Virus record (IMG/VR): IMGVR_UViG_3300044712_000786
Coordinates: 128,001 to 192,000 of that record
DNA: 64,000 nucleotides
Source: a virus
Taxonomy: Duplodnaviria > Caudoviricetes
Direction: 5' to 3' (one strand)
The translations under genes and the position numbers were made by a program. The notes beneath the pieces are model-generated. The model did not search any database, was not told the DNA's origin, and worked only from the letters and a program-made list of their open reading frames with translations. Positions 16,177 to 27,352 of this stretch are shown here, in pieces (position 1 is the stretch's first letter; every line of letters starts with the position of its first letter).

Positions 16177-16252
16177 TGGAGGCTCAGGTTGGAATTTCAC
16201 CAACGTCAGTCAAGTTAACGGCTTGATGCTCGAATGTCTGAGCTACTGAGCC
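16177..16252 (-). tRNA. tRNA-Asn(GTT), second copy
   Basis: UCAAG-CCGUUAA-CUUGA; U73. Confidence 0.8.
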
Positions 16253-16583: not shown

Positions 16584-16756
16584 ACAGAAGCCTCTGCCCC
16601 CACTAGAGCCAAAGCTAAGCTTCCCACGGGCTCCCCAGCTTGCTTAATAACTCTTCTTAGATGGTCCGCTACCTCTTTACATGCTTCCTGCTCAGCGGCA
16701 GAAAGCTGAGAAATAAGACCTTTAATAATTAAAACAGTTTCTTGTTCACTTGTCAT
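16580..16756 (-). CDS. hypothetical protein (58 aa, not in ORF track)
   Basis: Manual translation MTSEQETVLIIKGLISQLSAAEQEACKEVADHLRRV... Confidence 0.55.
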   Translation of the reverse strand: MTSEQETVLIIKGLISQLSAAEQEACKEVADHLRRVIKQAGEPVGSLALALVGAEASV

Positions 16757-16760
16757 AAAA

Positions 16761-16836
16761 TGGTAGGCATGGCAGAAATTGCATCTGCATAAAACAATTT
16801 CGAAGATTGGTGCCTAATCTATTCGGCCACATGCCC
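16761..16836 (-). tRNA. tRNA-Arg(TCG)
   Basis: CAAU-CUUCGAA-AUUG, CCA. Confidence 0.85.
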
Positions 16837-16851
16837 ATAAAATTTAAAACG

Positions 16852-16958
16852 GGGATTTCACTAATGTTCCATTAAAAAGTGTGCTGCCAATTACACTACC
16901 GGGGCATAAGCGCCCCAGAGAGGACTCGAACCTCTACTTCCTTCATCATGTCTATCCC
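16852..16958 (-). ncRNA. YrlA-type Y-RNA-like RNA enclosing a circularly permuted tRNA domain
   Basis: Order T arm - acceptor 3' strand - GCUUAU loop - acceptor 5' strand - D arm, inside a GGGAUAGAC...AGUGAAAUCCCC stem. Confidence 0.7.
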
Positions 16959-16961
16959 TAT

Positions 16962-17044
16962 GGAGGATTTCACTAAACGGGACCGTCGCCCCTCGTTCTA
17001 CCCTCTTTCTCGCTTGTAAGGCGAGCGAGTAATAATCTATCTCC
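16962..17044 (-). ncRNA. paralogous Y-RNA-like scaffold carrying a UAC anticodon-like hairpin
   Basis: GGAGAUAGA...AGUGAAAUCCUCC; inner CUCGC-CUUACAA-GCGAG. Confidence 0.6.
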
Positions 17045-17056
17045 ATTTAGCTAAAG

Positions 17057-17131
17057 CATCCCAGACAGGAGTTGCACCCATATAAATCTTGGTTCGTAGC
17101 CAAGTGCCTAATCTATTCGCGCCACTGGGAT
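17057..17131 (-). tRNA. tRNA-Arg(ACG), CCA not encoded
   Basis: CUUGG-CUACGAA-CCAAG. Confidence 0.85.
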
Positions 17132-17139
17132 AAATCACA

Positions 17140-17204
17140 AGCCGCTATCGATGTTCCGCCCATAATAGCCAGTTATCAGGGCAATCAATAGAACACTAAC
17201 GGTT
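17140..17204 (-). ncRNA. hairpin-closed spacer RNA
   Basis: Nested stems AACCGUUA/UAGCGGCU, UGUUC/GAACA, GCCC/GGGC. Confidence 0.4.
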
Positions 17205-21147: not shown

Positions 21148-21221
21148 TGGTAGGGCATTTCGGTAACGCTCCGAGACACTAACTTTGTAGGAGTTAGTCA
21201 ACACCTTGGTTGCCATGCCCT
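21148..21221 (-). tRNA. tRNA-Val(TAC)
   Basis: UAACU-CCUACAA-AGUUA, A73-CCA. Confidence 0.8.
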
Positions 21222-22963: not shown

Positions 22964-22978
22964 ATTAAATAGTTTCCT

Positions 22979-23034
22979 GAGGATTTCACTCACTTTGTTC
23001 CTTCCCTTTCGTGCCCTACTCGGGAGTCTATCTC
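22979..23034 (-). ncRNA. minimal third copy of the Y-RNA-like scaffold
   Basis: GAGAUAGAC...GGAAC...AGUGAAAUCCUC. Confidence 0.55.
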
Positions 23035-23099
23035 ATTCCACTAGGTTAACCGATTCAAGAGAAGGGGAGCGCACAATGCTGCTCAACCCCTCAAATCAG

Positions 23100-25876: not shown

Positions 25877-27352
25877 TCACACAGTCACTTTGTTATAGCG
25901 TTCCTGACCAATAACTTCCATCATCGTGTCATAAGGGGTAAAGTTCTTACCCGATAGGACGGTTTTAAAGATAGAGGGAGAGAAACCACTAACTAAGGTT
26001 GCTCCGCGCTCATCCATTTCAACGGGCGATTGACCCGTATTAACTCTAGCGTCCAAGTTCCAAAATACAACATGAGGAACCTTGTATCCAGCCTTATCAA
26101 ACTTTTGCTTGATAGTCTCGAAATTACTCTTGCTATTATTGTCGCAAGCCTTATCGAACTGCATATCAGACAGGATATACAATACGTCAGGCATTTCCTT
26201 CTTAGGAACCTTATTCGCTACAGCAGCATTCAGAATCAAATCAAACGCAGCCTGTAAGTTAGTGTTTCCACCCCAAGGGGCACGCATTACGTTCAAAACC
26301 CGCTCAGTTAAAGAACTTCCTTGCACTTGCAATAAGCTAGGGCTAGCCTCGAAAGTAATGAAGTGATTCTTGAAGAAACCCTCAATTCTTTCTGCCATAT
26401 AGATGCCTAGACCAACACTAACCAACATCGGCTGTCCAGCCATAGAACCCGAAACGTCTACCAAGCAGAGACCATTGTGAGGATTCTCTTCTAAGTAGTT
26501 AGGCAAAGCCCTCCACTGCAACTCAACAGTAGGGTCTACTCCAGACTGAGCCTTTTGGACTAGCTCATGAGGATATAGCACAGACGCATTAATCTTAGCT
26601 TCGCCCGTAGCTACCTTACCAAGGTAAGCAGTATAGCCAATCGGGTCATGCTTGCCGAAAGCCTTTCGATAAATCATGCTGGCGCGAGAAGGAACAGACT
26701 CATAGTCAATCTCGTTCCAATTCTTGGAAGACATCTTTACTTCAACCACGTTAAGGTATTTCCTTAAGGAAGTAAGCATCTTGCGATAAGTCTTAGGAGA
26801 CATATCCAAAGCCTTCATAAGCTTCTTAGCAATAAGAGCCTCCGAAGAACCCTCAGAAGGCATCCACTTAGCCAACAGGGAAATAGCTTCCCCCTTCTTC
26901 ATAAGCTTCAAATCAGCTTTAACTTGCTTAACTAAGAACGAGGTAACTTCATCCTCTACCTTAGTGCCAAATAAGCAAAAAAGGTCATCAAAACGACCAA
27001 ATTCGGCTACATTAGCCAAGTTTCGAACAACAATTTTGGGATTGTTATTCGCCAACCAGCTTAGCATAGTGCGAAAAGCCTTGCGTTGTCCTTGACCCCC
27101 GCGAACATCACGGAAGTAAAAGGCAATCTTAGTAGCTAGCAACTTATCTTCGTTGAAAGCGTTGGAGAATAAGCTCAGAACATTAGCTTCGGGGGTATTT
27201 CGCAATGCGCCACCCAAGGCAAAGAAATCAACCAAGCTGCTCTTAGAAGTCGAAGGAGTGATAGCTCCATTTTCGGTTTGAGTCATAGTGTGAATCTTAG
27301 TAACGGTCTTAGGTGCCTTACTGTTCTTAATAGCTTTAATTAGTTTGCTCAT
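25877..27352 (-). CDS. DUF2828-type TROVE/Ro60-like protein with C-terminal vWA domain
   Basis: TENGA..LVDFF..., FYFRDVRGGQGQR, LLAKWMP, KINASVLYPHELV, MIDAS DVSGSM, ILSDMQFD, FWNL. Confidence 0.85.
   Translation of the reverse strand: MSKLIKAIKNSKAPKTVTKIHTMTQTENGAITPSTSKSSLVDFFALGGALRNTPEANVLSLFSNAFNEDKLLATKIAFYFRDVRGGQGQRKAFRTMLSWLANNNPKIVVRNLANVAEFGRFDDLFCLFGTKVEDEVTSFLVKQVKADLKLMKKGEAISLLAKWMPSEGSSEALIAKKLMKALDMSPKTYRKMLTSLRKYLNVVEVKMSSKNWNEIDYESVPSRASMIYRKAFGKHDPIGYTAYLGKVATGEAKINASVLYPHELVQKAQSGVDPTVELQWRALPNYLEENPHNGLCLVDVSGSMAGQPMLVSVGLGIYMAERIEGFFKNHFITFEASPSLLQVQGSSLTERVLNVMRAPWGGNTNLQAAFDLILNAAVANKVPKKEMPDVLYILSDMQFDKACDNNSKSNFETIKQKFDKAGYKVPHVVFWNLDARVNTGQSPVEMDERGATLVSGFSPSIFKTVLSGKNFTPYDTMMEVIGQERYNKVTV

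Follow-up and report, generated by a model that had tools for sequence, protein, structure and literature searches.

Genomic context of the locus

The window analyzed here is a stretch of 64,000 nucleotides. It covers bases 128001-192000 of a virus record of 202.7 kb, which has direct terminal repeats and was obtained from rhizosphere metagenomes. The G+C content of the phage is 37-41%. A dense tRNA array spans 2181-22963 on the minus strand; 16 tRNAs were called in it by ARAGORN, and further ones were added by Rfam and a custom cloverleaf script. RNA1, the subject of this study, is flanked by tRNA-Arg(ACG) and tRNA-Arg(UCG) on the same strand and shares a terminal frame, here termed the handle, with RNA2 and RNA3. 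The main features are listed below, with bit scores from the covariance model R1 described further on.

17056..17131, minus strand: tRNA-Arg(ACG), 11 nt upstream of RNA1
16962..17044, minus strand: RNA1, s1-type handle RNA, recognized by R1 built without it (21.8 bits); orthologues found
16851..16958, minus strand: RNA2, s2-type, handle with T arm, loop-closed acceptor stem and D arm (25.5 bits)
16761..16836, minus strand: tRNA-Arg(UCG), 14 nt downstream of RNA2
21148..21221, minus strand: candidate tRNA-Val(UAC) of the phage, folded by the script with 7/7 acceptor pairs and an encoded CCA
22978..23035, minus strand: RNA3, third handle copy with a different insert (51.3 bits); the insert stem of its L082 orthologue covaries

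Between RNA1/RNA2 and the flanking tRNAs, no promoter- or terminator-like sites were found. A blastn search of the region against deposited phages gave no match, and among public sequencing runs no RNA run is listed as holding it. The stretch 16713-17177 was present in one other rhizosphere run with zero differences, so that there is no variation to read.

Architecture of RNA1

RNA1 runs from 17044 to 16962 on the minus strand, with the termini GGAGAU-AGA ... AGUGAA-AUC-C-UCC. Its elements are, in 5' to 3' order:

17039..17044, minus strand: 5' strand of P1, GGAGAU; GAU invariant in the family, P1 covariation in alignment A2
17036..17038, minus strand: junction strand AGA, invariant in alignment A2
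17027-17031 and 16999-17003, minus strand: P2 helix of 5 bp (UACUC/GGGUA), carrying the anticodon arm
17009..17025, minus strand: anticodon arm CUCGC-CUUACAA-GCGAG, loop at 17014-17020; exact tRNA-Val 17-mer, with a homologous stem in the L483 orthologue
16995..16998, minus strand: junction GAAC (conserved as GAAY in the family and s1 alignments)
16979..16992, minus strand: P3 hairpin GGGGC-GACG-GUCCC, the mark of s1-type RNAs, between GAAC and AGUGAA
16969..16974, minus strand: junction AGUGAA (GUGAA invariant in the family and s1 alignments)
16962..16968, minus strand: 3' strand of P1, AUC-C-UCC, with a conserved bulged C at 16966; column invariant in 11 members

An earlier note on this DNA had described the central hairpin as a perfect anticodon arm of 5 bp and 7 nt, and this was confirmed at 17025->17009, where it matches the arm of tRNA-Val(UAC) exactly. 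No other hairpin on the minus strand of the window combines a perfect 5-bp/7-nt form with U33, R37 and UAC. The arm is flanked by G (17026) and AAAGA (17004-17008). The claim that RNA1 carries only this hairpin had to be given up, since the RNA also contains P2 and P3. The closing stem that the note had drawn was corrected to include the bulged C.

ARAGORN called no tRNA at RNA1, and the Rfam tRNA model (RF00005) gave only a 14-bit match (E 8.8) spanning RNA1 and part of RNA2. RNA1 has no cloverleaf, acceptor stem, D arm or T arm and is not chargeable. In nearest-neighbor folding, the family fold amounted to -18.7 kcal/mol compared to -24.7 for the minimum free energy structure. P3 formed with a pairing probability of 0.98-1.0. 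The outer stem was disfavored, with a closing-stem probability of 0.04, because GAGGGU (17005-17000) competes for AUCCUC.

The handle family

RNA2 starts 3 nt past RNA1 and has the termini GGGAU-AGA ... AGUGAA-AUCCC. Common to both RNAs are 5' (G)GNGAU-AGA and 3' AGUGAA-AUC-C-NCC, and in the whole 202.7 kb of the genome the full handle pattern is found at three sites only, each on the same strand as the tRNAs. RNA2 has no anticodon arm; its handle stands where the anticodon loop would be. The D, T and acceptor parts ascribed to this neighbor in the earlier note were seen in its alignment to YrlA.

Relatives were obtained by pattern scans of viral contigs, of which the first two yielded mostly chance matches; true relatives were left after filtering for closing-stem pairing. 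Scans of viral and metagenome contigs for an RNA1-type pattern (AGAAC with a 10-30 nt gap) gave chance matches only. Eleven family members, with RNA1 and RNA2 left out, formed alignment A2, in which GAU-AGA, GAAC, GUGAAAUC and the bulged C are invariant. Closing-stem covariation was 0.49 versus 0.17 in shuffles, and none of 500 shuffles scored as high, which upholds the proposal that RNA1 repeats the outer stem of RNA2. Furthermore, 79% of the closing-stem cells were paired, versus 59% in shuffles and 31-42% with the partner slid. The insert helix is bounded directly 3' of AGA and directly 5' of GAAC.

A covariance-model search of phage genomes, as suggested before, was productive. Model R1, built from the 11-member alignment without RNA1 and RNA2, matched only RNA1, RNA2 and RNA3 in the phage genome and found 1-6 copies per record in 13/13 pattern-holding records (this genome and 12 others). 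The score of RNA1 corresponds to an E value of 0.028 genome-wide and is marginal. RNA1 itself has the GAU/AUC closing stem, the bulged C after AUC and the outer pairs that covary in the family, as well as AGA ... GAAY ... (A)GUGAA around the insert helix. Every handle copy checked lies inside a phage tRNA array on the tRNA strand. No handle was found by R1 in five actinomycete genomes.

The handle comprises a closing stem formed by the two ends of the RNA, with invariant G-C, A-U and U-A pairs and a bulged C, and a purine-rich junction. It holds a variable insert helix, P2, and s1-type RNAs have the GACG-loop P3 in addition. Rfam at permissive thresholds returned nothing for RNA1 or RNA3, and no description of the handle was found in Rfam or in the literature searched. 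Inspection of the junction by eye established neither a hammerhead nor a 5S rRNA nor a kink-turn, and no ribozyme or 5S family appeared at E <=10. Even if its inserts are relics, the handle remains a strongly conserved RNA junction that is not catalogued. No protein family was shared among the handle-bearing arrays, the sole signal being an artefact of ORFs antisense to tRNAs, and the search for a binding partner of the handle RNAs found none.

The s1-s2 tandem and its orthologues

Of the two handle RNAs that form a conserved tandem in the phage tRNA operon, RNA1 is the upstream one (s1). Orthologues were found when viral contigs were scanned for long inserts and for hairpins with a GACG loop. 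The tandem is kept in at least four phage lineages (the window and three others), with a spacer of 2-10 nt:

This window: s1 17044->16962, s2 16958->16852, spacer 3 nt
L504 (G419): s1 1506-1592, s2 1595-1720, spacer 2 nt
L483 (G420): s1 2373->2257, s2 2253->2134, spacer 3 nt
L492 and four identical contigs (G421, G422): s1 992->858, s2 847->735, spacer 10 nt

RNA1 shows what defines the s1 subtype: its P3, with a GACG loop, is placed between GAAY and GUGAA, and a mimic of the s2 type follows 2-10 nt downstream. The s2 RNA is a mimic of T arm, closed acceptor stem and D arm in each lineage. In the four s1 RNAs, the P3 stems (GGGGC/GUCCC, GUACC/GGUAC, GUCUC/GAGAC, and GCUC/GAGC) are 100% paired, three of five pairs are changed in a compensatory manner, and the GACG loop is invariant.

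The s1 inserts differ considerably. The insert of L483 is composed of a D arm, the arm CUAGC-CGUGAAG-GCUGG (5 bp, 7 nt), a variable loop and a T arm, and it aligns to tRNA positions 8-63 with 20.1 bits. In L492, a short hairpin, CCC-GUUUA-GGG, separates a D arm from a T arm, and L504 has a single long hairpin with the loop AAUUGA. The stem of the RNA1 arm is homologous to that of L483, with a compensatory A-U/C-G change at 29:41. Because of this homology and the fuller inserts of the orthologues, we read RNA1 as a reduced, acceptor-less tRNA body in which only the anticodon arm was kept.

At the anticodon position, the loops are CUUACAA in RNA1, CGUGAAG in L483, GUUUA in L492, and AAUUGA in L504; RNA1 and L483 agree in three of seven letters. 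Judged from these sequences, the Val loop is specific to the lineage of the window. In the earlier note, homologues with a changed 7-nt anticodon-like loop were to count as a refutation; the three orthologues are of this kind, which speaks against a Val-specific role, and an action specific to the Val anticodon is quite unlikely.

A split or permuted tRNA composed of RNA1 and RNA2 was also considered and rejected, because the orthologous s1 and s2 RNAs of L483 and L492 each have their own D and T arms.

tRNA pieces on the handles of relatives

Beyond the tandem, handles of relatives carry a range of tRNA pieces. The insert of G004:177728-177788 is a tRNA body covering positions 6-65 and scores 39.4 bits, above the Rfam tRNA cut-off. 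A T arm alone is found in G004:172431-172508 and a T-loop-like hairpin in L040:3611-3671. The insert of L040:5018-5135 and L031:13137-13257 consists of a hairpin and a T arm, with stems that covary between the two, and RNA2-like modules in relatives combine a T arm, a closed acceptor stem and a D arm. Since such varied pieces (tRNA body, D/anticodon-like/T arms, T arm, T+acceptor+D) sit on the same handle, the earlier formula of one scaffold with interchangeable tRNA parts is right as a description. Many inserts of the family are not tRNA-like, for example the UGACGA loop of the B family and the insert of RNA3. GACG-loop hairpins were also seen as P2 insert in B and B' members.

Identity of the anticodon arm

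The 17-mer CUCGC-CUUACAA-GCGAG occurs exactly in genomes of at least 120 species, almost all of them Actinomycetota; the genera include Micromonospora, Actinoplanes, Nonomuraea, Actinomadura, Frankia, Geodermatophilus, Modestobacter, and others. Among the matches listed, 108 of 120 loci show tRNA hallmarks on both sides of the 17-mer, and ARAGORN identified it as the anticodon arm of tRNA-Val(tac) in nine of ten loci tested. The identity to tRNA-Val ends exactly at the arm borders, and the 1-nt and 5-nt flanks in RNA1 are spaced as they are next to the anticodon arm of a tRNA. Since the sequences are identical, the RNA1 hairpin is to be regarded as a true tRNA-Val(UAC) anticodon arm. Within the phylum, the arm is restricted, with exact copies in 4 of 401 evenly sampled Actinomycetota genomes.

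Given the loop CUUACAA, it is not very unlikely that the 5-bp stem would match that of some real tRNA-Val. The identity of the 17-mer therefore shows tRNA origin rather than a proven host. Taken together as a single claim, the identity, architecture and tRNA origin of RNA1 can be held with high confidence. The exact arm could serve as a defined substrate for tests and may also hint at the host, pointing to actinomycetes of the Micromonospora, Actinoplanes, Nonomuraea, Frankia, and Geodermatophilus type.

The phage terminase is 25-28% identical to terminases of Firmicutes phages, which is a distant likeness only, and the ribonucleotide reductase was uninformative. The actinomycetes with the matching tRNA-Val arm have a G+C content far above that of the phage. 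The body of RNA2 was compared to five actinomycete genomes sharing the Val arm; there was no tRNA match with up to three mismatches, and a copy of the tRNA of these actinomycetes was rejected as its source.

The 17-mer is also found in tRNA-Val genes of phages (L447, L450, and L452). L450/G418 is a complete 169-kb phage, and its tRNA-Val has an odd GGCAGUA T loop in common with tRNAs of the present phage. The candidate tRNA-Val(UAC) of the present phage, for which there was neither an ARAGORN nor an Rfam call, has the arm UAACU-CCUACAA-AGUUA, with C33 and a stem unrelated to that of the RNA1 arm.

Relation to Ro60 and Y RNAs

One gene of the phage bears on a possible link to Ro60:

25877-27352, minus strand: ORF of 491 aa with DUF2828 and DUF7788, Ro60-like by AF2 model

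The AF2 model of the DUF2828 ORF (pLDDT 85) shows a Ro60-like ring and a vWA domain. In the PDB, it is matched best by Ro60/Rsr, along its whole length (1yvr, E 7e-8, TM 0.57; further matches are 2i91, 2nvo, and the phage Ro60 9l5y). In the literature searched, DUF2828 received incidental mentions only. The handle RNAs could thus be Y-RNA-like partners of this protein, with the bulged-C closing stem binding the ring and the inserts tethering or baiting other factors, as YrlA/YrlB do for Rsr. This would agree with the YrlA layout of RNA2 and with the occurrence of known Y RNAs in sets with one tRNA-like member (PMC4201824). Partial tRNA modules are likewise on record: Deinococcus Yrn1 has an "anticodon arm" of 5 bp, and YrlB of M. 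smegmatis has a T arm (PMC4201824). Additionally, DUF2828 is present in three of four complete handle-bearing genomes (G000, G004, and G422) and in none of nine complete unrelated large phage records (Fisher test, p about 0.014, uncorrected for relatedness).

Several results speak against such a partnership. G003 is complete and has a handle, but neither DUF2828 nor TROVE; conversely, the handle was absent from all 80 DUF2828 loci (gene +/- 10 kb) and from all 50 whole DUF2828-bearing phage records, 21 of them complete. The distance from handle to DUF2828 is 3-9 kb here (9 kb for RNA1); in G004 and G422, it amounts to about 25 kb or more and about 150 kb, whereas Y RNAs of Salmonella and Deinococcus lie within about 2 kb of a Ro60 (TROVE) gene (PMC4201824). 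No such gene lies within that distance here, and TROVE (PF05731) is absent from this genome and from the 12 other handle-bearing records. The Ro-binding motif of YrlA, GNCGAAN0-1G, is absent as well, the stem and junction reading GGAGAUAGA / AGUGAAAUCCUCC. RNA2 matches Rfam YrlA (RF02553) weakly, with 22.1 bits against a gathering cut-off of 69, and RNA1 gave no match at E <=10; the tRNA-like domain of YrlA (T arm, acceptor-like stem-loop, D arm) is present in RNA2 and missing in RNA1. On balance, a Y-RNA-like partnership with the DUF2828 protein is improbable, and the idea of Ro-tethered baits put forward in the earlier note has come out weak.

Proposed function and alternative explanations

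RNA1 is most likely a non-chargeable mimic of a tRNA part. The best explanation overall, offered tentatively and at just short of an even chance, is that the tandem handle RNAs serve as non-chargeable tRNA-part mimics. The RNA1/RNA2 pair would be transcribed together with the tRNAs, as suggested by the lack of promoter- or terminator-like sites between them, and released through processing of the flanking tRNAs. The handle would provide a stable, closed end, and the inserts, as non-chargeable copies of tRNA parts, would compete with real tRNAs for a tRNA-reading factor, a candidate for which is a tRNA-cleaving defense nuclease or a tRNA-modifying or tRNA-binding protein. We infer such a competitor or decoy action with more doubt than belief. 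It would fit the view of phage tRNAs as a counter to tRNA-cleaving defenses, in some cases via anticodon-loop changes (PMC10264068, PMC11555353). It would also fit that RNA1 bears a canonical arm, in contrast to the tRNA-Val candidate of the phage itself with its C33 loop.

A more elaborate version, which is rather improbable, would see in the tandem a two-piece RNA anti-defense device of jumbo phages, whose handles show complementary non-chargeable parts of host tRNAs. Here, these parts would be the exact host tRNA-Val(UAC) anticodon arm on the one hand, and the elbow and sealed acceptor stem on the other. TRNA-cleaving immune nucleases might be soaked up in this way while altered C33 tRNAs of the phage sustain translation.

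A number of observations count against the explanation by tRNA-part mimics. The loop letters at the anticodon position differ among the orthologues, many inserts are not tRNA-like, and the closing stem of RNA1 is thermodynamically disfavored. A phage of 37-41% G+C with a distant, Firmicutes-leaning terminase stands opposite an actinomycete arm, the exact arm was present in only 4 of the 401 evenly sampled Actinomycetota genomes, no binding partner was found, and no protein family is shared among the arrays.

Among the alternatives, the handle together with P3 may be the working part, protein-binding or stabilizing, and the insert a mere spacer derived from an ancestral tRNA body, the perfect Val arm of RNA1 then being a leftover with no anticodon-related role. 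The range of orthologue inserts from a full D+anticodon+T body to a plain hairpin, with variable loops, would be expected in this case, as would the confinement of invariance to the handle and the GACG loop and the return of GACG-loop hairpins as P2 insert in B and B' members. A 17/17-nt identity to arms of living tRNA-Val is unexpected for a relic, however; moreover, compensatory changes maintain the insert stems (RNA1/L483; L040 versus L031), and tRNA-like inserts recur in several independent arrangements, which leaves a relic insert somewhat unlikely. Alternatively, the free arm could act on regulation by pairing with GUA codons on the ribosome or with a Val T-box specifier, or by occupying the anticodon-binding domain of ValRS, and thereby tune host translation or the expression of aminoacyl-tRNA synthetases. 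The exact arm with its tRNA-like 1-nt and 5-nt flanks would suit this, and the s1 RNA of L483 combines an anticodon-like arm and elbow with no acceptor end; in T-box riboswitches, an arm and elbow without an acceptor would bind stem I without signaling "uncharged". Against this stands the variation of the loop letters among orthologues, and a regulatory mimic is highly improbable. Finally, the 17-mer might be a coincidental hairpin or the att-site core for a host tRNA-Val gene. Phage integration into tRNA genes is common, and in two of the six viral contigs holding the 17-mer (L449 and L451) it lies outside any tRNA. The identity stops at the arm ends, whereas att cores usually run to the 3' end of the tRNA; the hairpin stands where a conserved RNA has its insert, with a homologous arm at the same place in an orthologue, and direct terminal repeats are present in the genome. 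Both chance and a remnant of recombination are barely credible.

Comparison with known systems

The closest known kind are the YrlA/YrlB Y RNAs (RF02553; Chen et al., 2014, PMC4201824), the defining features of which were not found here. In both cases, small RNAs form a bulged stem from their two ends, the stem bears tRNA-derived parts, which in RNA2 are the T arm, the closed acceptor stem and the D arm, and the RNAs come in sets of two or more, which in the handle RNAs, too, would be processed from one precursor. Unlike YrlA/YrlB, the handle RNAs have no GNCGAAN0-1G, no TROVE gene and no adjoining Ro60 gene; they have the junction AGA / GAAY...GUGAA, are located inside tRNA arrays and score far below the Rfam cut-off. 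What this study adds is the exact match of the arm to tRNA-Val, the conservation of the s1-s2 tandem together with the covariation of P3, and a set of tests bearing on Ro.

Phage tRNAs share with RNA1 their location in the same arrays and, according to PMC10264068 and PMC11555353, the anticodon loop as the contested site. The tRNA-Val candidate of the phage itself has the altered loop (C33), and RNA1 the canonical one. In contrast to phage tRNAs, RNA1 is neither a tRNA nor chargeable, and its role as competitor is a proposal. The current reading of phage tRNA arrays is that they counter tRNA-targeting immunity; if the proposal is true, a conserved, non-chargeable RNA pair would add a second, RNA-decoy layer to the tRNA conflict.

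Read from the sequence alone, the junction might be likened to a kink-turn, in which a bulge is followed by tandem sheared G.A / A.G pairs between a canonical and a non-canonical helix: the GA/GA letters are suitably placed, GAU-A-GA / GA-A-AUC could form A.A, G.A and A.G pairs beside a Watson-Crick stem, and the first insert pair is mostly C-G. The would-be bulge (GAAC, linker or hairpin, AGU) comprises 10-30 nt, compared to 3 nt in a kink-turn.

Engineered tRNA scaffolds consist of a tRNA body with an insert in place of the anticodon arm and are used for the expression of recombinant RNA. The handle RNAs would resemble them in having a stable closed framework, tRNA-like processing and the display of an arbitrary helix, and the topology of RNA2 is identical. 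They differ in being natural and in having the handle as framework, with RNA1 displaying the anticodon arm itself. If this holds true, the handle would be a natural modular scaffold for RNA display.

Handle RNAs and their inserts

Within RNA1 (17044-16962 (-)), the handle RNA of the window whose insert is a tRNA-Val(UAC) anticodon arm, a near-repeat of the 5' handle was found: GAGGGU-AGA at 17000-17008 (-) resembles GGAGAU-AGA at 17036-17044 (-). In the predicted minimum free energy fold, the internal repeat is paired with the 3' strand AUCCUC, and it could provide an alternative conformer or a switch. The repeat was not found in the RNA1 orthologue of lineage L504.

The RNA1 arm recurs in a tRNA gene of another virus. 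The tRNA-Val(UAC) at L450:9420-9495 (-), from the complete 169-kb phage G418, has the same anticodon arm, and the handle is absent from this genome. An unusual T loop, GGCAGUA, is common to this tRNA and the tRNA-Gly(GCC) of the window phage. The shared RNA1-type arm and the shared T loop suggest a common phage tRNA lineage.

The G004 phage bears both the handle and the gene for the Ro60-like protein DUF2828. In its tRNA array, L309:1576-1631 (-) matched Rfam Dicty_Class_I_RNA with 34.9 bits (cut-off 41.5); this match probably represents the ACAGCAA-handle RNA family. The insert of a further handle RNA, L309:1501-1577 (-) (G004:42630-42706), also contains the heptamer CUUACAA. Here the heptamer lies in an internal loop beside the insert helix P2, whereas in RNA1 it forms the hairpin loop.

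A hairpin with a GACG (or UGACGA) loop was found at L154:4917-5001 (-) and L142:7685-7767 (+), and as P3 of all s1 RNAs, the upstream RNAs of the handle tandems. As it recurs both as the P2 insert in members of subgroups B and B' and as P3 in s1 RNAs, it may be a separate recognition module.

The insert loop of RNA3 (22978-23035 (-)), AGUA-G-GGCA-C-GAA, reads as a bulged-G arrangement of the sarcin-ricin or loop E-like kind, with GNNA as the capping loop. At L082:3645-3690 (+) the loop is kept, while the insert stem covaries (UCCC/GGGA vs CCG/CGG). The loop is also similar to GAGAGUAGGGAAC of E. coli 5S rRNA.

The handle 3' strand, GAAC-N3-6-AGUGAAAUC (e.g., window 16962-16998 (-) and L188:820-886 (-)), likewise resembles positions 44-60 of E. 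coli 5S rRNA (GAAC-UCAGA-AGUGAAAC). However, the 5' partner strand is absent, and Rfam searches with two stretches returned no 5S family at E up to 10. The likeness may be a coincidence.

tRNA genes

In three tRNAs of the window array, the anticodon loop has C33 rather than U33. Directly after RNA3 lies a gene resembling tRNA-Leu(UAG), which received no call by ARAGORN or Rfam. The phage arrays of the B family contain a tRNA whose anticodon loop is 8 nt long (anticodon 'ctct' according to ARAGORN), a possible four-base decoder.

Positions and features of these tRNA genes
16177-16252 (-), tRNA-Asn, loop CCGUUAA, C33
18234-18308 (-), tRNA-Thr, loop CCUGUAA, C33
21148-21221 (-), tRNA-Val, loop CCUACAA, C33
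22880-22963 (-), tRNA-Leu(UAG)-like, long variable arm, encoded CCA
L031:9467-9542, 8-nt anticodon loop (ARAGORN)
L040:2645-2720, 8-nt anticodon loop (ARAGORN)
L154:5562-5637, 8-nt anticodon loop (ARAGORN)
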